Counted from the stretch's first letter, positions 6,630 through 62,331 are shown. The stretch: DNA of 64,000 nt from Deltaproteobacteria bacterium (GCA_018433085.1 JAHDRW010000028.1:4804-68803), one strand, 5' to 3'. A program made the numbers and translations. The notes: generated by a model from the sequence alone, not told the origin.

Positions 6630-7988
6630 TCATTTCAGGAGCGTTCGATAGAGCGCCACGAGCCCGGGATCGGCGTGCTTCTGGAAGATGCCGAAATGGA
6701 AGCTCAGCTGAGACGGTCCCTGGTCAACGATCTCGATGTTGATATTCTCCTGATAGAGCGCGGCCGACGCCCTGGCGAGAACCCCGGGAGTATCCCTCAT
6801 GCCGATACCCACGGGCGAGAGCAGGCACAGATCGTAGCGGATATCCAGAAAGTCAGGCGAAAGGCCCTTTGCGATGGTGTCCTTGAGATCGTCAGCCTTG
6901 TCCATGAGATCGTGCTGATCCACGATCACCGCGATATCGTCCTTGTCGGAAGGGTAGTGGTGCGTATTGATGCCGAAGTCTTTGAAGATATCGAGCAGTT
7001 CCTTGGTGAAGCCGATGGTCTCGCCGATCATGTCCTTTTCGATATATACATAGGCTATGCCGTCCATACGGGCGATGCCCACCGCTGTCTCGCCCGGGAT
7101 GCGCGAGCTCACGATCCTGGTGCCCGGGGCCGCGGGATTGTTGGTGTTGCGGATGTTGATGGGGATGTTCTTGTTCTTGCAGCTCACCATGGCGTCGAAG
7201 TGGAAGACATTGAATCCCCGCGACGAAAGCAGCCTGATCTCCTTGTAGGTCAGCTCCGGGATCACCGAGGCCTCGGTGATGATCCGGGGATCGACCTGGT
7301 AGACCCCGTCCGTGTCGGTCCAGTTTTCATAGCACGAGGCATCCACGGCATAGGCCACCTCGCCGCCCGTGAGGTCCGACCCGCCGCGGGAAAGGACCGC
7401 GATGTCTCCCTTGAGCGTAATACCGTAGTAGCCGGGGATGATATAGACCGGCCCGTCCTTCAGGCATTCCCGCATGCCGGAATGGGCTGCGGGAAGAACC
7501 TTTGCATTGCCGAACCGGTCGGAGACGAGGAAGCCCATGTCCTCGGGCAGCATAAGCTTCACGTCCATGCCCTTGCCCTGGAAATAGCGGGCAATGATCT
7601 TGGCATTGTAGTGCTCGCCGCGGGATGCAAAGAAATCGATCCTCTTCTTGTTGGAGATGTGCGACGCGAGATCCGACTCGAGATCCTCCAGGATATCGTC
7701 GCCTCTGATACCGAGGTCGACAACGAGGGATTTGAACTTGGCCAGCACCCGATCGAAGCTTTCACGTGCCGTGATGTTTTTTCCCCGTGACCCGAAATGG
7801 TGTCCGTGGGTGGCGACATTGAAGAGATGATCGGTAACCTTCTCCGGATCACTCCCGTCCTTGCCGGGCGCCGATACGACGACGAAACGGCGGTTCTCGT
7901 CGGCAGACACGATCCGGCGGACCTTTTCGATCTGGCCGGCGTTGGAAACAGAGCTCCCCCCGAACTTACATACGATCTTCGCGCCCAT
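6630..7988 (-). CDS. lysC: aspartate kinase
   Basis: N-terminal KFGGSSV kinase motif, the VVSA..G.T. pattern and C-terminal ACT-like regulatory region. AAGGGGG SD before the ATG at 7988. 452 aa. Confidence 0.9.
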   Translation of the reverse strand: MGAKIVCKFGGSSVSNAGQIEKVRRIVSADENRRFVVVSAPGKDGSDPEKVTDHLFNVATHGHHFGSRGKNITARESFDRVLAKFKSLVVDLGIRGDDILEDLESDLASHISNKKRIDFFASRGEHYNAKIIARYFQGKGMDVKLMLPEDMGFLVSDRFGNAKVLPAAHSGMRECLKDGPVYIIPGYYGITLKGDIAVLSRGGSDLTGGEVAYAVDASCYENWTDTDGVYQVDPRIITEASVIPELTYKEIRLLSSRGFNVFHFDAMVSCKNKNIPINIRNTNNPAAPGTRIVSSRIPGETAVGIARMDGIAYVYIEKDMIGETIGFTKELLDIFKDFGINTHHYPSDKDDIAVIVDQHDLMDKADDLKDTIAKGLSPDFLDIRYDLCLLSPVGIGMRDTPGVLARASAALYQENINIEIVDQGPSQLSFHFGIFQKHADPGLVALYRTLLK

Positions 7989-8242
7989 GGACCCAGCCCC
8001 CTTTCATGCTGAAGCTCTTCAGCACACCCTTCTATCCCAACTTCCCGCTCAGGGAAAGAGGCAATCAGAGGCTGGGATTCCGTATGGAGGGAGATGGACG
8101 ACGCGAGTGTCTGACCGGCAATCCCGGTAGCGGGGGCGAGAATATGGAAATGCGTGTGTTTTCTGGAAAAACAACGCGTACTCCAGGATGCCTTATGGAA
8201 ACGATCTGTGGATTCGTATCGTTATCCACGGGGCTTGCAAGG

Positions 8243-8269
8243 TTGCATTGCCTGTTCGGGGGATATAAT
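8243..8269 (+). promoter_or_regulatory. sigma70-like promoter candidate for the MscS gene
   Basis: TTGCAT (8243-8248), a 15-nt spacer, then TATAAT (8264-8269), about 60 nt upstream of the start at 8329. The spacer is shorter than optimal. Confidence 0.25.
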
Positions 8270-8328
8270 ATAGCCGGGTGTCAGAAATGCAGAAACCATA
8301 AGAAATGCATGGTCGGGGGAATGTGATT

Positions 8329-9264
8329 ATGTTTGATCAGGTCGTGAATTCCATCAATGCGGTGAGCTGGAACGGGCTGGGCCTTGTCGCGTTTCGTATT
8401 CTGCTCGTGCTCGTCATAGCCCTGGTGGTCTCCAAGGTGCTGGGCCGGTTCATGAATATCCTCAGGCAGAGGCTCGTCAGCGCCGGGTTGTCCAAAGGGG
8501 ATACGGCTACCGAGACCGCAAAGCGCACAGAGACCCTCATCAGGCTCGTCAGGCAGGCCTCGTACATTGTTCTGTGGGTCATGGTGGCCCTGGTCCTGCT
8601 CAAGGAGGTGGGGGTGGAGATCGCACCCATTCTCGCAGGCGCGGGCATCGTGGGACTGGCCGTGGGCTTTGGTGCTCAGAACCTGGTGAGGGACGTGATA
8701 TCGGGTTTTTTCTTCATTCTGGAGGACCAGGTCCGGGTGGGTGATGTGGCGGTGGTCAACGGCACCGGAGGGCTGGTGGAGGAAATAAACTTCCGGACCA
8801 TCATCCTGCGCGACATCTCCGGGGTGGTGCACGTTTTCCCCAACGGGGCCGTGACCACGCTCAGCAACATGACCAAAGACTGGTCTGCCTACCTGTTCGA
8901 TTTCAGCGTTGCCTACAAGGAGGACACGGACAAGGTGGCTCGGGTCATCGAGCAGGTGGGGAGAGAGATGGTCCATGACCCGAAGTTCGGTCCCCTCATG
9001 CTCGAAGTCCCGGAGATCTTCGGGGTAGACGCGTTCGCGGACTCTGCCGTGGTGATCCGGGGGCGCATCAAGACCAGGCCGATTCAGCAGTGGGCCGTGG
9101 GCCGGGAGTTCAACCGCAGGATCAAGTATGCCTTCGATGCAGCAGGAATCGAGATTCCTTTCCCCCACCGGACGGTCTATTTTGGTGACGCGAGCAAGCC
9201 CTTTGACTTGAGGATCACCGAGACTCATCAGGGGGCCGCAGTCGAGGAGGGCCGGAAGGAGTAG
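8329..9264 (+). CDS. mechanosensitive ion channel family protein (MscS-like)
   Basis: N-terminal TM helices, then the conserved MscS core ([36 protein letters not shown]...). The ATG at 8329 has a GGGGGA SD 8 nt upstream. Alternative start at 8305. Confidence 0.85.
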   Translation: [311 protein letters not shown]

Positions 9265-54997: not shown

Positions 54998-55606
54998 TTA
55001 TGCACCCGGTGTGGCCGCGCAATACCGGTCACCCTCCCGGAACACCCGGCCCATCCGCATGAGCCTGTCCAGGTGCTTGTGCATCATGTGCCGCTCCGAT
55101 ACGGCCAGGTTCCAGGCCCCGATGCTCTCTGCCCGTCCATGGATGATCCCCTGGTCCGTTATCCGGTCCAGGGTCGCGGGCCCCTGGCGAAGGAATTCCA
55201 GCGGCCGCTCTTCACGTGTCGCTATGCTTCCGAGGTACTGCTCGATGAGTTCCGGGTCTCCCTCGTGCACCCCTTTCCCGTGAGCGGTGAGGTAGACATC
55301 GGCGGGGATGGTCTTGAGGCGCTTTAAGGACGAGATAGTCTGGTCCAGGTCCGAGACCGGGTCTCCGTAATACGGCCCTGATTTTACCAGGTCCCAGTCC
55401 GCGAGATAGAGAATTCGCTCTTGGGGGAAATAAAAGGAACAGTGCCCCGGGGTGTGGCCGGGCGAGTGCACTACCCGGCACAGTGTGCCGCCCGGATTCA
55501 ACTCAAGGGTCTCGAACGGACACCGTACACCGTCCGTCTCCGCGCCCGTCCATGACCCCGCTCCACGCTTCCGCTTGCGCCGACCGCCGGCATCATCAGG
55601 AAACAC
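54998..55606 (-). pseudogene. MBL-fold metallo-hydrolase, apparently 5'-truncated
   Basis: Contains the distal MBL motifs (HSPGHTPGH, LADWDL, LTAHG) and a C-terminal helical extension. No HxHxDH motif is present. The first ~25 codons (MFPDDAGGRRKRKRGAGSW) look non-native, and no continuation appears in other frames upstream. Confidence 0.5.
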
Positions 55607-55812: not shown

Positions 55813-55828
55813 ATTGAAGGAGGTTGCC

Positions 55829-56941
55829 ATGAAGGTTGGTGTCCCCAGGGAGATCAAGGAGCGTGAAGGGAGGGTTGCCATAACCCCGGCAGGGGTGTCG
55901 GCGCTGACCGGCCACGGGCATGTGGTGTATGTGGAGAAGGGCGCCGGGGCGGGCTCAGGCATAACGGACGAGGCCTTTGAAAAGGCGGGTGCGTTCATGG
56001 CCTCGGATTCCGAGTCCCTCTGGGATTCCTCAGAAATGATCGTCAAGGTCAAGGAGCCCGTGGAAGCGGAGTTCGAGCGGATGCGCGAGGGGCAGGTCCT
56101 CTTTACCTACCTGCATCTCGCCGCATCGGAAAAACTGACGGACAAGCTTCTCGAGCGTGGGATCATCGGGATTGCATACGAGACCATCCAGCTCGAGGAC
56201 GGTTCGCTCCCCCTGCTGGCACCCATGAGCGCCGTGGCCGGAAGGTTGTCCATTCAGGTCGGGTGCGCATGCCTGGAGGCGAAAAACAGGGGCAAGGGCA
56301 TCCTGCTCTCGGGTGTCCCCGGGGTGCATCCCGGCAAGGTCACCATCCTGGGCGGAGGCATTTCCGGCCTTAACGCGGCACACCTGGCCGCGGGCATGGG
56401 TGCCCTGGTCACCTTGCTGGACATCAGCCAGAAAAGGCTCGGCTACCTTTCCGACCTCTTCCACTCACGGGCCGTCACCCTCATGTCAACCCCTGCCAAT
56501 GTGGAACGGAGCGTGGTGGAGGCGGACCTGGTCATCGGCTCAGTTCTCGTCCCGGGGGCAAAAGCTCCCCATCTCATCACCCGGGAGCTCCTCAGGAAGA
56601 TGGAACCAGGGTCCGCCCTGGTGGACATCGCCATAGACCAGGGAGGGTGTGCCGAAACGAGCAGGCCCACCACCCACGACAATCCAGTCTACATCGAAGA
56701 GAACATTGTGCATTATTGCGTGTCCAACATGCCCGGCGCGGTGCCCCGTACCTCCACCCAGGCACTGACCAATGTGTCTCTGCCCTATGTGGTGGAACTG
56801 GCGAACAAAGGATGGCCCAGGGCCCTGCGGGAGAACAGCGCCCTGGCAAAGGGGCTGAACGTCATGAAGGGGAGCCTCGCCAACAGGAAGGTGGCCGAGG
56901 CTTTCGACCGGGAGTATACCGACTGCCGGTCGCTCCTGTAA
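55829..56941 (+). CDS. ald: alanine dehydrogenase
   Basis: MKVGVPREIKEREGRVAITPAGV opening, NAD motif ILGGGISGLNAAHLAAGMGA and MPGAVPRTST. 370 aa. The ATG at 55829 follows GAAGGAGG. Confidence 0.92.
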   Translation: MKVGVPREIKEREGRVAITPAGVSALTGHGHVVYVEKGAGAGSGITDEAFEKAGAFMASDSESLWDSSEMIVKVKEPVEAEFERMREGQVLFTYLHLAASEKLTDKLLERGIIGIAYETIQLEDGSLPLLAPMSAVAGRLSIQVGCACLEAKNRGKGILLSGVPGVHPGKVTILGGGISGLNAAHLAAGMGALVTLLDISQKRLGYLSDLFHSRAVTLMSTPANVERSVVEADLVIGSVLVPGAKAPHLITRELLRKMEPGSALVDIAIDQGGCAETSRPTTHDNPVYIEENIVHYCVSNMPGAVPRTSTQALTNVSLPYVVELANKGWPRALRENSALAKGLNVMKGSLANRKVAEAFDREYTDCRSLL

Positions 56942-57152: not shown

Positions 57153-58790
57153 GTGGAATATTGTCAGGAAACGGCATTCCTAAACGCGGTCATATGGGCG
57201 GGCAGTCCCATCAGGAAAATGCAGGGAACCATGCGGATCGGGGGCGGGAAGATCCTGGGTATTGCCGCAAACGGACAGGCCCCGGGTGATGACCGGGATG
57301 CCCGGGACCTCACGGGAAGGCACATCATCCCCGGGCTCATCGACGCGCACCGGCATTTTTTCATATCAGCGCTTATCGCCCGGCACCGGGACGCGGGCGG
57401 ATGGAAGTCCAAATCCGATGCCCTGGACGCCATCCGTGAGGCGTGCCGCGGGGACCGGTCACCGGCCGGGTGGGTGTTTTTCTCGCGCATGGATCATACG
57501 AAGTGGAAGAATCCCGTACTGCCCACCTTAAGAGAGATGGACGCCATAGCCGGGTCGCGGCCGGTATTCGTTACGGACCTTACGCTGCACCGGTCGCTGG
57601 CTTCCACCGAGGCGATGCGGCGTGCGCAGCTCAGCAGGGATAGTCTCCGCTTTGCCGGGGACATGGATGTCCGCCGAAACGGCGAGCTCAAGGGCACCGT
57701 GTGGGAGGAGGCCCTTGGCAGAATTCTGTCCACCATGTACCGGGAGACGCTCCGGCATGCAACCGGGCAGGAAAAGCGGGAGATCATCCTCCAGGAGGCG
57801 AGCCGGTGCATCCGGATGGGTATCACCCATGTCCATGACCCGGGTGTCTCTTCCGACGTGCAGGTTCTCCTGGACGACGCGGGCAGGCATACCCCCCTGA
57901 AAATCAGCTGGGCGGTCGCTTCCGGGCAGTGCCTGTATACGCCGCCGTGCAGCGATGACGAGGCCGAGGCCGTCCATTCCCCCCATGCTCCCAGGAGCGT
58001 GAAATTCTTCCTGGACGGAGCCCATCGCACCGCGGCCAGCATGCCGGTCATGGCGGGCCTCAAGGCAACGATCCGGGCGGGGTTCGACAGCGTGTCCCAG
58101 ATGAACCTCGCCCCCGTGAAGCTCCTGCTCGAGCAGAAGATTCTCCTGAAGGGCGGGCGTCTGGTCATGCCGTATCTGCGGTTCGAAGATGCCCGTGATC
58201 TCCAGAAGCGGGCATCCGTGTTCTCCGAAAAAGGCTACCGGCTGGTGATTCACGCACTGGGAAATGTGGCCGTCCGGCAGGCGGCCGAGCTCATCAGGAC
58301 GATCCGGCCCGCCGGCGGTGCTTCGGTGGAGCACCTGCTCGTCATGGACGACGAAGACCTGGACATATTCGCCGGATGCGGGGCCGTGGCGTCGGTCCAG
58401 CCGGGCTTCATTCCCGGGTACGCCGAGACCATCGAGCGCATGGGGGCCATACCTTATCTGAAAACCTTTGCCCTGGGCAGCATGAAAAGGCGGGGCATCC
58501 CTGTCTGCATCAGTTCGGATGGACCCTGCGGGCCGGACGATCCCCTGTACAACGCCAGAAGGGCCGCAGACCGGAGAAAACCCGACGGCACCATGCTGGA
58601 TCCCGACGAACGGCTTTCCCAAGAAGACGCCCTGGCCGCCGCCAGCATCGGGGGAAGTCTCTCCATGGGCATGGCCAATGGGGGGCTGTGCACGGGAGCA
58701 CCTGCAACGTTCTGCGTGGTGGACGGAGACCCCTTCTCCGATGCGAGCCGCGTGATCCAGACCTGGATCGACGGGGTGAGGGTATATTGA
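57153..58790 (+). CDS. amidohydrolase family protein (Amidohydro_3-type, TIM-barrel metal hydrolase)
   Basis: GTG at 57153, 6 nt after GGGGAGG. IIPGLIDAHRHFF (HxH motif), a later VHDPG, IHALGN and SSDGPCG motifs, and the C-terminal W.DG..V. Confidence 0.8.
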   Translation: MEYCQETAFLNAVIWAGSPIRKMQGTMRIGGGKILGIAANGQAPGDDRDARDLTGRHIIPGLIDAHRHFFISALIARHRDAGGWKSKSDALDAIREACRGDRSPAGWVFFSRMDHTKWKNPVLPTLREMDAIAGSRPVFVTDLTLHRSLASTEAMRRAQLSRDSLRFAGDMDVRRNGELKGTVWEEALGRILSTMYRETLRHATGQEKREIILQEASRCIRMGITHVHDPGVSSDVQVLLDDAGRHTPLKISWAVASGQCLYTPPCSDDEAEAVHSPHAPRSVKFFLDGAHRTAASMPVMAGLKATIRAGFDSVSQMNLAPVKLLLEQKILLKGGRLVMPYLRFEDARDLQKRASVFSEKGYRLVIHALGNVAVRQAAELIRTIRPAGGASVEHLLVMDDEDLDIFAGCGAVASVQPGFIPGYAETIERMGAIPYLKTFALGSMKRRGIPVCISSDGPCGPDDPLYNARRAADRRKPDGTMLDPDERLSQEDALAAASIGGSLSMGMANGGLCTGAPATFCVVDGDPFSDASRVIQTWIDGVRVY

Positions 58791-58856
58791 GGTAAAGTGA
58801 ACAGTGGAGTGGCAATAAACCATGCGTGAGAAAATCATGCAGTGAAGGAGGATTGT

Positions 58857-60260
58857 ATGGGATACAGCGGGTGTAGGAAAATGGATGTCCAGGAGCGTGA
58901 CTATGTCCAGCACCTTTTCGGCAGGCATATCTCCAGAGGCCAGGTGAGATACCTGAGGTGCGCGCACCTGGATATCTATGAGCGCGACCGGCAGGGCTGC
59001 ACGGTGACGGATGCGGTTTCGGGGAAGCGATTCTTCGACTGCTTCAGCTCCGCCGGGTGCTTCAACGTGGGCAGGGGCAACCCGAAGATCAGGGAGACCC
59101 TGGAGAGAGCCCTGGACGACTGGGACATGGGGTCGCACCGGATGCTCTCGGAGCCCAAGATCAGGTTTGCGGAGAAGCTTGCATCGCTCTGTCCGGGCGA
59201 CCTCAAGAAGGTGGTGCTCTGCGCGACGGGCGCGGACGCGTGTGCGGCGGCCATAAAGCTGGCCAAGGGCGCCACGGGCAGGAACGACGTGATCACCATG
59301 GACAAGGCGTACCACGGGCACGAGGGCTTCAGCCTTTCCGCCAACGGCAAAGACTACTACAAGGAGCTGTTTCTGCCCCTGATGCCGGGATTCCACGTCG
59401 TTCCGTTCAACGACCTGGAGGCGGTAAGGAAGGTGGCGTCAAAGGACACCGCAGCCATCGTGCTGGAGCCGGTGCAGGGTGAGGGCGGCATTCACGTGGC
59501 CACCCGGGAGTTCATGAACGGCTTGAGGAAGCTTTGCGACGAACTGGGCATCATGCTCATCTTCGACGAAGTCCAGACCGGCTTCGGCCGTACGGGCAAG
59601 CTATGGGGGATGGAGCACTATGGGCTTGTCCCGGACATCATGTTCATCGCCAAGTCAATCAGCGGTGGGTTCTACCCCAACGGCGCGGTGGTCTACCGTG
59701 ATACTGAACGACTCACCGGCTACGTGGAACAGAATCCCCTTTTTCACTCATCCCACTCGGGCGGATCGGACTTGGGCTGCATCGTTTCCTCGGCCGTGTT
59801 GGACTACCTGGCCGAGAACAAGGTCTGGGACCACGCGGCAGAGATCGGGGCGCGGTTCAAGGAAGGGCTCATGGAAATATGGAGGGAAAACAGCCACGTG
59901 GTTCGGGAGGTGAGGGGGCTCGGCCTCATGATCGGCATTGAGTACAAATACGAGTTCCTGGGCGCGCTCATGGCCGACTGTCTGGCAAAGCAGGGCGTCT
60001 GGGCGGTGTACTCGGGCAACGCCCCGCAGGTCATGCGATTCCAGATCCCCGTCACCGCCGCCATGGACGAGGTGGAGGAGCTCCTGGCCCGCATCAGGGC
60101 CGCGGTGGACTCCATGAAGATATACCTGGTTCTTCTCCTTCCTCTGGCGAAGGTTCCCCTGTTCCGAATGGCTCTCGACAACCTGAAGGTGCAGATCATC
60201 GCATTCAACCTCGTGCGGGATCTGGAAGAGTTCGTCTTCAAGTATGTACTGAAGCGGTAA
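58857..60260 (+). CDS. class-III PLP-dependent aminotransferase (catalytic lysine present) with C-terminal hydrophobic extension
   Basis: ATG at 58857, 5 nt after GAAGGAGG. Motifs ATGADACAAAIKLAKG, YHGH, LEPVQGEGG, IFDEVQTGFGRTG and PLP lysine in FIAKSISGG. About 45 extra residues follow the fold (KIYLVLLLPLAKVPLF...). Confidence 0.85.
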   Translation: MGYSGCRKMDVQERDYVQHLFGRHISRGQVRYLRCAHLDIYERDRQGCTVTDAVSGKRFFDCFSSAGCFNVGRGNPKIRETLERALDDWDMGSHRMLSEPKIRFAEKLASLCPGDLKKVVLCATGADACAAAIKLAKGATGRNDVITMDKAYHGHEGFSLSANGKDYYKELFLPLMPGFHVVPFNDLEAVRKVASKDTAAIVLEPVQGEGGIHVATREFMNGLRKLCDELGIMLIFDEVQTGFGRTGKLWGMEHYGLVPDIMFIAKSISGGFYPNGAVVYRDTERLTGYVEQNPLFHSSHSGGSDLGCIVSSAVLDYLAENKVWDHAAEIGARFKEGLMEIWRENSHVVREVRGLGLMIGIEYKYEFLGALMADCLAKQGVWAVYSGNAPQVMRFQIPVTAAMDEVEELLARIRAAVDSMKIYLVLLLPLAKVPLFRMALDNLKVQIIAFNLVRDLEEFVFKYVLKR

Positions 60261-60273
60261 GGGAGGTGCGGAA

Positions 60274-61536
60274 ATGAAAAAGGCAGTTTCGACCAAACAA
60301 ACGGACAGGGACACGAAACAGACCGACAGGGACAATCTCTTTGCAGCAGCGGAGCGGGTGTTTTCCAAAAGTTTTGTGGATGATATCCGGAGCAGGGGGC
60401 ATGGCTTCCTGGAGGCAGGCCGGGAGGGTTCGTATATCTTCGATGAAGAGGGCAACCGGTATCTCGACTGCTTCACTTCAGCCGGGACCTTCAACCTGGG
60501 CAGAAAGAATCCGGCCATAGCGGCGCAGCTTAAAAAGGCACTCTTTGAAACCGACCAGGGCAACTTCGTGATGCCCTCCGAAGAAAAGGCCCTGCTTGCC
60601 AGAAGGATCGCCGAATTTGTGCCTGGCAGTCTGGAGTGCGTCCTCTTCGGGGTGACCAGGGGCGAGTCCATGGATGCGGCCTGCAAGCTCGCCCGGGGGT
60701 TCACGGAGAGGCCTGAGCTCATAACGGTGGACGGAGGGTGCTACGGAGAATCCGGGTTTGCCTTGAGCCTCTCCGCCAGAAAGGGCAAGGAACAGTTCGG
60801 CGCACTGATCCCCGAGGTGAAGGTCGTGCCGTTCGGCGATGCGGATGCGGCACGCTCGGCAATCAGCCCCCGGACAGCGGCCTTCATCATGGAGCCCGTG
60901 CAGGCGGAGAACGGCTGCCGGGAGGCCGAAAAGGCGTACTACGCCCAAATCCGCTCCCTGTGCGACCGGCACGGTGCAAAGCTCATCTTCGATGAAACCC
61001 AGAGCGGTTTCGGGAGAACCGGCGCCCGGTTCTTCTTCGAACACATCGGTGTGGAGCCGGACATCCTCATCGTGGGAGAGGCCATCACCGGAGGCGTCTT
61101 TCCCATGACGGCCATGGTTTTCACCCCTGAGCTCAAGGGGTTTTTCGACATACACCCGCTCATCCATCTCTGCACCTTCGGCGGACACGATCTGGGCTGC
61201 AGGGTGGCCATGACCGCGCTTGACGAGTATGACCGGGAGTGCCCCTGGGGGAACGCCCGGGAAACGGGCGAGAAGCTGATCAAGAACCTGGGAGGGCTGG
61301 CGGGCGGAAACAAGCCCCTGAAGTCGGTGACAGGCAGAGGACTGCTCATCTCGCTCAATTTCGGTGCAGAGGAAACCGCCGGCGCATTCTGTTCCCATGC
61401 GGCAAAGAACGGGCTGTTTGCTGACACCGGCAGGGTGGACGGCTCATGCGTGCTGCTGAGGCCGAGCCTGCTCATAGGCGGGGAAGAGGCGGCCGCTGTC
61501 ACGGATGCGGTGGAGCGCACGCTGAAATCGCTGTAA
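60274..61536 (+). CDS. class-III aminotransferase paralogue lacking the PLP-binding lysine (Glu at that position)
   Basis: Aligns along its length with the upstream gene (FDCFSSAGCFNVGRGNP vs LDCFTSAGTFNLGRKNP; IFDEVQTGFGRTG vs IFDETQSGFGRTG). It has IVGEAITGG where the partner has FIAKSISGG (GAG codon at 61078-61080), and CYGE instead of YHGH. Confidence 0.8.
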   Translation: MKKAVSTKQTDRDTKQTDRDNLFAAAERVFSKSFVDDIRSRGHGFLEAGREGSYIFDEEGNRYLDCFTSAGTFNLGRKNPAIAAQLKKALFETDQGNFVMPSEEKALLARRIAEFVPGSLECVLFGVTRGESMDAACKLARGFTERPELITVDGGCYGESGFALSLSARKGKEQFGALIPEVKVVPFGDADAARSAISPRTAAFIMEPVQAENGCREAEKAYYAQIRSLCDRHGAKLIFDETQSGFGRTGARFFFEHIGVEPDILIVGEAITGGVFPMTAMVFTPELKGFFDIHPLIHLCTFGGHDLGCRVAMTALDEYDRECPWGNARETGEKLIKNLGGLAGGNKPLKSVTGRGLLISLNFGAEETAGAFCSHAAKNGLFADTGRVDGSCVLLRPSLLIGGEEAAAVTDAVERTLKSL

Positions 61537-61740
61537 TCAGATCCTCGGGCAAACCACGTACCGGCATACCAGAAGGGGGGGCAACTTCACTTCAGGTCCC
61601 CCCCCTTCCCGCTTTTCCTCCGAGAGCGGAACCCCGAGCCCGGAGGGCCACGGGCGACCGTGATCCGGTCCTGTTGATTCACAGGGAGTAATGTGCCATA
61701 CTCTGGGGCACTGATAGCACCGGAGAAAGGTGGCCGAATC

Positions 61741-62331
61741 GTGGCAAGGAAACCGGTACGGGAAGAGCGGAAAAAGCAGATACTCAAGGCGCTGGACCAG
61801 TGCCTTCGGGAGAAATCCTTTCAGAAGACCTCCATCAAGGATATCTCCCGGGTTGCTGGCGTAAACCACGGTGTGCTGCACTATTATTTCGCGAACAAGG
61901 AAGACATCCTCCTGCAGTATATCGATTACGTGGTGAAGGACTTCAAATCGCAGATGCAGGAGCTGACGGCATCCGGAAACATGCCAGGCATGTCGCAGGC
62001 CGATTTCGTCAGGGAGGTCTTCGGCTTCGTGAACCACAGGATCACGCTCGACCGGAATCTCTCGAAGATCTTCGTGGAGATCTGGGAGATCGGGCTGTAT
62101 AATGATGCGGTGCGCGCAAAACTGCGGCAGGCGTATGTCGAGTGGATTCAGACCCTGGCCGGGAATATCGGCGGCGGCTCGACGGACACGGATGCCGCGT
62201 CCGTCATGAGTGTCGCCATGGTTGCCTTCTGGGAGGGAATGGCGCTGCTCTCCACGGTATTCGAAAACGGGGAGATACGGTTCGAAGAGGTCCTTGAGAG
62301 ATTTCAGCAGCAGATCATCGAGATTCTGTAA
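61741..62331 (+). CDS. TetR/AcrR-family transcriptional regulator
   Basis: HTH region ILKALDQCLREKSFQKTSIKDISRVAGVNHGVLHYYFANKEDIL. The frame is open from the GTG at 61693. The GTG at 61741 after GGAGAAAGG is preferred, but the start is uncertain. Confidence 0.8.
   Translation: MARKPVREERKKQILKALDQCLREKSFQKTSIKDISRVAGVNHGVLHYYFANKEDILLQYIDYVVKDFKSQMQELTASGNMPGMSQADFVREVFGFVNHRITLDRNLSKIFVEIWEIGLYNDAVRAKLRQAYVEWIQTLAGNIGGGSTDTDAASVMSVAMVAFWEGMALLSTVFENGEIRFEEVLERFQQQIIEIL

Follow-up and report, generated by a model that had tools for sequence, protein, structure and literature searches.

The DNA analysed here is a 64,000-nucleotide (nt) stretch from a Deltaproteobacteria bacterium (GCA_018433085.1, JAHDRW010000028.1:4804-68803), referred to below as the window. 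It carries two adjacent genes, designated AT1 and AT2, whose products are both homologues of class III aminotransferases; AT2 has a glutamate codon at the position of the catalytic lysine. Read from its GTG, AT1 comprised 472 amino acids (aa); NCBI places the start of this protein (P0121) at Met6, position 58857, for a length of 467 aa. The AT2 reading frame was uninterrupted over 420 aa, and a ribosome-binding site (GGGAGGTG, 60261-60268) lay 5 nt ahead of its ATG. The coordinates of both genes, of the residues discussed below and of neighbouring genes are collected in Table 1.

Table 1. Features of the AT1-AT2 locus, in window coordinates. Residues marked with YgjG equivalents were placed by alignment to that enzyme.
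Feature	Position	Strand	Evidence
AT1, predicted catalytic class III aminotransferase subunit	58842..60260	+	Pfam Aminotran_3, 289 bits
AT2, lysine-less class III aminotransferase homologue, proposed non-catalytic partner subunit	60274..61536	+	Pfam Aminotran_3, 218 bits
Spacer of 13 nt from the AT1 stop (TAA, 60258-60260) to the AT2 ATG	60261..60273	+	Read from the sequence
AT2 Glu269 codon (GAG) at the Schiff-base lysine position	61078..61080	+	Sequence; alignment to YgjG
AT2 Arg129-Gly130, in place of phosphate-binding Gly150-Thr151 of YgjG	60658..60663	+	Alignment
AT2 residues 284-306, predicted donated loops including Leu296 (YgjG Phe327*), Thr301 (YgjG Thr332*), Phe302 and His305	61123..61191	+	Conservation
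AT2 residues 92-102 (ETDQGNFVMPS), interface loop proposed to line the AT1 substrate pocket	60547..60579	+	Conservation
AT1 Lys271 codon, Schiff-base lysine of the single predicted active site	59652..59654	+	Alignment to YgjG Lys300
AT1 residue 305 (His here), donated-Thr position (YgjG Thr332*)	59754..59756	+	Alignment of 120 orthologues
AT1-specific C-terminal extension, residues ~426-472	60117..60257	+	Conserved motif; AlphaFold2 helices
Alanine dehydrogenase, frequent cassette member	55814..56941	+	TIGR00518, 526 bits (cut-off 392)
Amidohydro_3 metal hydrolase, variable cassette member	57153..58790	+	Pfam PF07969, 161 bits
TetR-family regulator, frequent neighbour	61693..62331	+	Pfam TetR_N

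An initial annotation of this DNA had reported Glu (GAG) at the Schiff-base lysine position of the second aminotransferase, and this was borne out. BLASTP aligned AT1 and AT2 at 37% identity over 377 residues, with PDIMFIAKSISGG set against PDILIVGEAITGG. HMMER alignment to the Escherichia coli enzyme YgjG (PDB 4uox) placed AT2 Glu269 and AT1 Lys271 both on Lys300, the Schiff-base lysine of YgjG (PMC4244111). The other motif departures it had described were also present in AT2: CYGE for YHGH, EPVQAENG for EPVQGEGG, and TRGESMDAA for TGADACAAA. Two further changes were found beyond these, namely Leu394 of AT2 at the position of YgjG Arg426 and the loss from AT1 of the near-universal Thr332 equivalent.

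Conservation was assessed in 120 listed AT2 homologues (51-100% identity) from a search of 5.8 billion proteins. Glu269 was present in 120/120, the preceding Gly268 was invariant, and Arg129 and Gly130 were each present in 120/120. When 1.84 billion cluster representatives were searched exhaustively with HMMER, approximately ten AT2-type clusters were recovered, down to 44% identity. Arg129-Gly130, Glu269 (nine representatives) and Thr301 occurred in every AT2-type representative spanning the positions. The boundary of the family was sharp, matches at 40% identity or less carrying Gly and Lys, and the AT2 family formed a monophyletic clade in a simple neighbour-joining tree. Codons were compared over 14 loci: Glu269 was encoded by GAG in ten and GAA in four, and Arg129 variously by CGG, AGG and AGA. 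Because synonymous codons vary across these loci, Glu269 and Arg129 are under selection and not simply inherited. In AT1, Lys271 was Lys in 120/120 orthologues (AAG in nine loci, AAA in five).

Ratios of nonsynonymous to synonymous substitution (dN/dS; Nei-Gojobori, unsaturated pairs with dS of 0.12-0.5) were 0.09-0.17 for AT2 and 0.05-0.13 for AT1, values that indicate purifying selection on both. Mean pairwise identity within each set of 120 was near equal (AT2 0.61, AT1 0.60). The Glu could in principle be a sequencing or assembly error, or AT2 a decaying pseudogene: GAG is one base from AAG, and a metagenome-assembled genome (MAG) is the probable source of the window. Against this stand the presence of Glu in all listed homologues and in all 14 codon-aligned loci through both synonymous codons, a dN/dS of about 0.1-0.17, an intact frame with a strong ribosome-binding site, and the other invariant family-specific residues of AT2. 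Error and decay were therefore ruled out by conservation, synonymous codon turnover and dN/dS, and their probability is negligible. The proposals of the initial annotation that canonical catalysis was lost long ago, and that the intact frame reflects a retained non-catalytic or altered function, are supported by the conservation of Glu, now traced in orthologues at the protein and DNA levels, and by purifying selection. The AT2 Glu codon is real and conserved, and AT2 is a member of a widespread family whose proteins resemble aminotransferases but have lost a cofactor site of their own.

Active-site residues were compared with those of 83 ordinary class III aminotransferases from unrelated loci, using roles taken from the YgjG structure paper (PMC4244111) and transferred by alignment. 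The Schiff-base Lys300 of YgjG (Lys in 83/83 ordinary enzymes) corresponded to Glu269 of AT2; the phosphate-binding Gly150 (Gly in 83/83) to an invariant Arg129; the PLP (pyridoxal 5'-phosphate)-ring-stacking Phe180 (aromatic in 83/83) to Cys156, a position that varied between C, S, W, L and Y; and His181 (His in 83/83) to Tyr157. AT2 was thus missing all four features that were universal in the ordinary enzymes, and its four losses exceed chance. The carboxylate-binding Arg426 of YgjG, which was Arg in only 34/83 ordinary enzymes, was replaced by Leu394 (66% conserved). Other parts of the pocket were kept. Asp240, equivalent to the Asp271 of YgjG that is hydrogen-bonded to the pyridine nitrogen, was invariant; Glu241, Glu207 and Glu212 were invariant or nearly so, and Gln243 was 94% conserved. 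The AT2-specific residues Arg129, Tyr157, Glu269, His294 and His305 were conserved at 99-100%.

These changes sit within a class III aminotransferase fold. AT2 matched PF00202 at 218 bits (cut-off 30.5) over profile positions 17-403 of 403. Its AlphaFold2 model had a pLDDT (predicted local distance difference test score) of 90.2 and a pTM (predicted template modelling score) of 0.89, included N-terminal helices of the YgjG type, and gave YgjG (4uox) as its best fold match with a TM (template modelling) score of 0.93. The only internal low-confidence stretches of the model were residues 91-100 and 291-310.

The two active sites of a class III dimer both sit at the interface between the subunits. 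The Lys, the phosphate-binding Gly, the ring-stacking aromatic residue, the Asp and the substrate Arg come from a site's own subunit; its partner contributes a Thr, which binds the cofactor phosphate, and loops that wall the substrate cleft. In YgjG the donated Thr332* crosses the dimer interface and binds the PLP phosphate of the other subunit, and Phe327* forms part of the partner's cleft entrance (PMC4244111). AT2 kept these donated elements: among the listed homologues Thr301 was present in 119/120, Phe302 in 119/120 and Leu296 in 120/120. AT1 showed the opposite pattern. Its own-site residues (Gly130, Tyr157, His158, Glu214, Asp242, Gln245, Lys271 and Arg399) were 98-100% conserved in 120 orthologues. 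Its Thr332* position was Thr in 0/120, being His in 46, Ser in 31, Phe in 18, Leu in 11, and also Tyr or Met; the same position in ordinary class III enzymes was Thr in 81/83 and Ser in the other two. The Phe327* position was likewise variable in AT1.

When entropy differences between AT2 and AT1 were ranked over 413 aligned columns, Leu296 fell at percentile 99.8 and Thr301 at 98.8. In a scan made without assumed roles, columns invariant in AT2 and variable in AT1 clustered at AT2 residues 92-100 and 284-302; the loop 92-102 was 97-100% conserved in AT2. The reverse set, invariant in AT1 and variable in AT2, clustered in the C-terminal small domain (AT1 358-396) and at Tyr157 and Ala71, positions that serve the cofactor and substrate of a subunit's own site. 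The active-site losses of AT1 and AT2 are complementary.

Gene order was examined in 20 fetched loci (L001-L014 and L086-L091; approximately 17 non-redundant). Fourteen were found via AT2 (L001-L014), three via distant AT1 homologues (Desulfosudis oleivorans Hxd3, an isolate; a Spirochaetota MAG; and a 6.9-Mb contig) and three via the most divergent AT2-like proteins. An AT1 orthologue lay immediately upstream of AT2 in 20/20 loci, which came from Desulfobacterota, Bacteroidales and Spirochaetota. The two genes were separated by 13-120 nt or overlapped by 4 nt, the overlap (ATGA) being found in the three loci with the most divergent AT2-like proteins. The AT1-AT2 pair was the only constant element among the loci; the other neighbours varied. 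The family as a whole was widespread in anaerobes (Desulfomonilia, Syntrophia, Desulfobacteria, Bacteroidales and Spirochaetota), with further matches labelled Omnitrophota.

The constancy of the pair, taken with the complementary losses, argues for a specific non-catalytic role of AT2 as a partner subunit. On this sequence evidence AT1 and AT2 probably make up a class III aminotransferase that is an obligate heterodimer with one active site, AT1 being the catalytic and AT2 the non-catalytic subunit. The sole intact site would combine the own residues of AT1 (Lys271 with PLP) with the donated residues of AT2 (Thr301 and two loops). The reciprocal site would be degenerate, with Arg129 in the phosphate cup and Glu269 at the lysine position. 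We infer a physical complex, a single PLP per dimer, and an Arg129-Glu269 ion pair that would fill the space of the phosphate and the lysine-aldimine and so keep the empty pocket folded. In this arrangement the role of AT2 would be to stabilise AT1, to supply the missing part of its PLP site and to give its substrate pocket its shape. One of the two loops, AT2 92-102, is presumably a donated loop by homology with Phe85*/Phe86* of omega-transaminases. The loops at 91-100 and 291-310 combine invariant sequence with poor confidence in the monomer model, as would be expected if they took up an ordered structure only on meeting a partner; this argument from the predicted model is weak but consistent.

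The approximately 45-residue C-terminal extension of AT1 contained conserved Y428, L429, P434, R442 and L445, together with R459 (98% across orthologues). It was predicted by AlphaFold2 to form two or three helices (pLDDT 80-88) and was not found in AT2 or YgjG; it is speculated that this extension may clasp AT2. Separately, AT1 residues ~156-185 (59307-59396; AYHGHxGFSLSANGKDYYKELFxPLMPG) were near-invariant across orthologues, and no other internal segment of the AT1 monomer model was predicted with so little confidence (pLDDT 53-65). This segment could be a lid or an interface element.

Several points weigh against the single-site heterodimer. The AT1-AT2 complex is itself a prediction from sequence comparison, and the donated-loop assignment of 92-102 depends on an analogy with omega-transaminase structures. 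AT2 has kept Asp240, Glu241, Gln243, Glu207 and Glu212, which a dead pocket would not obviously need; these residues may be structural, or the AT2 pocket may still bind something. Arg129 could bind phosphate or another anion and not pair with Glu269, and one class III representative, P0256, combines Arg at the phosphate-Gly position with Lys. In a crude neighbour-joining tree AT1 and AT2 each formed their own clade but were not sisters.

The residues retained in AT2 raise the alternative that its remodelled pocket is a working site. Such a site would hold non-covalent pyridoxamine 5'-phosphate (PMP) or PLP, or another anionic ligand, through Arg129, Asp240 and Gln243, with Glu269 acting as general base or ligand contact; AT2, perhaps still joined to AT1 as a heterodimer, would then add a second site, either catalytic or allosteric. 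PMP-dependent sugar dehydratases, fold-type I enzymes with His in place of Lys, show that natural members of this fold can have the lysine replaced. Conservation of the five AT2-specific residues at 99-100%, alongside the invariant or nearly invariant Asp and Glu residues and Gln243, seems more than a passive scaffold needs. Other columns speak against a working site: the residue at the ring-stacking position varies, no carboxylate Arg remains and its Leu replacement is poorly conserved, AT2 varies most at those columns of the C-terminal substrate domain where AT1 is invariant, and the residue that AT1 would donate to an AT2 site is unconstrained. Several of the AT2-specific invariant residues (294-305) also sit in the donated loops, where the site of AT1 would explain them. 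A working pocket was on balance considered unlikely. The invariance of Asp240, Gln243 and Glu212 gives similarly modest odds to the binding of a B6 vitamer or other ligand in the remodelled pocket. A more specific form, in which the Arg129/Glu269 pocket is a newly evolved ligand site within the old PLP pocket, is doubtful. It would act as an allosteric sensor of a pathway metabolite or as a second catalytic centre, which would take as its substrate the aldehyde or imine produced by the AT1 site only a few angstroms distant. On that view the pair, built on a single fold, would be an enzyme both asymmetric and bifunctional.

AT2 might instead be independent of AT1, serving as a homodimeric binding protein, sensor or chaperone that is co-transcribed only because it belongs to the same pathway. 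Gene adjacency alone is no proof of a complex, and the predicted AT2 fold is, with confidence, that of a complete class III subunit with the N-terminal helices included. In an AT2 homodimer, however, the invariant Thr301, Phe302 and Leu296 loops would face a dead site, with no reason for their conservation, and an AT1 homodimer would be without the near-universal phosphate-binding Thr. Both homodimers are disfavoured for these reasons, and the pairing has outlasted complete turnover of all other neighbours. Independence of the two proteins was accordingly judged quite improbable, and the heterodimer of AT1 with AT2 remains the preferred reading.

The best sequence and fold match of both AT1 and AT2 was the E. 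coli putrescine aminotransferase YgjG/PatA (4uox), and the nearest families were putrescine aminotransferase, PigE and ArgD. Membership of the corresponding equivalogs was rejected, the scores being far under the cut-offs: AT1 and AT2 scored 297 and 217 bits against NF008570 (putrescine aminotransferase; cut-off 612) and 250 and 182 bits against TIGR03372 (cut-off 659). An amine/aldehyde:pyruvate transaminase is suggested by these closest families, by the frequent alanine dehydrogenase neighbour and by a Zn-alcohol dehydrogenase in one locus. Within this, the alanine dehydrogenase suggests pyruvate/alanine as the co-substrate pair, the L091 alcohol dehydrogenase, like the resemblance to PigE and YgjG, points to an amine/aldehyde substrate, and the interchangeable hydrolases suggest an amine released from a conjugate.

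Among the variable neighbours, alanine dehydrogenase stood beside the pair in about two thirds of loci (the window, L001/L012, L002, L004, L006, L011, L086 and L087) and not in L007-L010, L088 or L091. The cassette hydrolase was Amidohydro_3, Amidohydro_2 or none, PF04909 replacing it in L004, L086 and L087. The regulator was TetR in most loci and a sigma-54 activator in L088; the Zn-alcohol dehydrogenase was found in L091 only. Solved structures matching the Amidohydro_3 and Amidohydro_2 proteins were either uncharacterised or very distant, those related to the Amidohydro_3 protein of the window being all uncharacterised, and no substrate was assigned from the neighbours.

Individual loci showed further features. 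In L091 the most divergent AT2-like protein, P0244 (6001-7515, + strand; 46% identity), bore a C-terminal tail of approximately 100 residues, rich in Lys, Ala and Pro, that matched Pfam HC2 (histone H1-like). The gene for the Zn-dependent alcohol dehydrogenase (7531-8733, +) came next after it. In L014 (7310-9704; a Bacteroidales MAG) the AT1 and AT2 matches were both broken into pieces in different frames, and these breaks were taken as assembly frameshifts, not real pseudogenes. The AT2 orthologue of Desulfosudis oleivorans Hxd3 (L086 11413-12618, +; ABW66880.1, WP_012174498.1, UniRef100_A8ZX24) is named "Taurine--pyruvate aminotransferase" in UniRef and PLP-dependent aminotransferase at NCBI. 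Both names imply a catalysis that this protein probably could not have alone. The AT1 gene of this strain, directly upstream, lies at CP000859 1264439-1265821. Outside the AT2 clade, lysine-less class III representatives carried Arg (P0257 and P0268) or His (P0296) at the lysine position; together with P0256, which keeps Lys and has Arg at the phosphate-Gly position, they may be independent lysine-less or intermediate lineages.

Downstream of the pair, at 61575-61612 (+) and approximately 40 nt past the AT2 stop, G7 and C8 runs could form a stem around a loop of about 16 nt. They are followed by TTCCCGCTTTTCC, and the whole could be a terminator, although a simple scanner did not report it. 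A promoter and terminator scan gave sites no more numerous than in shuffled sequence, and Rfam and tRNA scans of the window found no RNA genes. On the other side of the pair, a metallo-beta-lactamase-fold gene (55001-55501, - strand, within the open reading frame 54998..55606) was a 5'-truncated remnant. It aligned at 88% identity to residues 130-296 only of the 296-aa L007 orthologue and was without the N-terminal part that bears the HAHEDH metal motif. Its break adjoins the alanine dehydrogenase and Amidohydro_3 genes, both of which are absent at that place in L007-L010, and this suggests an insertion or deletion event there.

Related arrangements are known in other families. Serine palmitoyltransferase (LCB1/LCB2, or SPTLC1/SPTLC2) is a heterodimer of homologous subunits of which only one has the PLP lysine and key catalytic residues; LCB1, the subunit without the lysine, retains residues thought to aid catalysis, hence the proposal of a single active site (PMC3794620). 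The enzyme differs from AT1-AT2 in belonging to the alpha-oxoamine synthase family, in being eukaryotic and membrane-bound with small accessory subunits, and in its substitutions, an Arg/Glu pair replacing the phosphate Gly and the Lys in AT2. A second case is SerTA of Serratia sp. ATCC 39006, encoded by the tandem aminotransferase-like genes Ser4 and Ser5. Ser4 is without the catalytic lysine; the complex has activity, which requires residues of this inactive chain that take part in binding the phosphate of PLP (PMC11726168). Its authors called it, in December 2024, the first heterooligomeric aminotransferase to be studied (PMC11726168). Both SerTA chains, however, are annotated as sugar aminotransferases and not as Pfam Aminotran_3, and the enzyme is a heterotetramer within a carrier-protein-dependent biosynthetic cluster. 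Ser4 is truncated at both ends, whereas AT2 is full length, of the same family as AT1, and widespread in anaerobes in variable, catabolic-looking neighbourhoods.

YgjG, by contrast, is a homodimer with two complete sites; Lys300, Gly150, Phe180, His181 and Arg426 are missing from AT2 and Thr332 from AT1. Prozymes offer another likeness. That of trypanosomatid deoxyhypusine synthase is described as a dead paralogue that joins an impaired catalytic paralogue in a hetero-oligomer and is required for activity (PMC3663545). Prozymes differ in fold and chemistry and occur in eukaryotic parasites, and activation of AT1 by AT2 is a proposal only. Two traits of heteromeric fold-type I enzymes were seen in the present pair: the paralogues always occurred together (20/20 loci across several phyla), and the inactive subunit kept the residues it would contribute (Thr301, Phe302, Leu296 and the 92-100 loop). 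AT1-AT2 stands apart from the known pairs in being class III, in its full-length dead subunit, in the Arg/Glu signature with reciprocal loss of Thr, and in its wide distribution in anaerobes. A literature search, with most subscription journals outside its reach, turned up neither a heteromeric aminotransferase of class III nor any account of these proteins.

Textbooks describe class III aminotransferases as homodimers, and these enzymes are in wide use as biocatalysts. To our knowledge, serine palmitoyltransferase and one sugar-type aminotransferase (in 2024) are so far the only enzymes for which a dead paralogue has been shown to act as partner. At present both genes of the pair are named as ordinary enzymes. 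The idea that they encode an obligate single-site heterodimer can be put to the test directly in Desulfosudis oleivorans Hxd3, which is in culture and fully sequenced. If they do, either gene expressed alone would likely fail. A chain with Arg replacing the phosphate Gly and Glu replacing the Lys, next to a chain that has lost the donated Thr, would then serve as an annotation signature, and the principle of the dead paralogue partner would extend to the class III aminotransferases.

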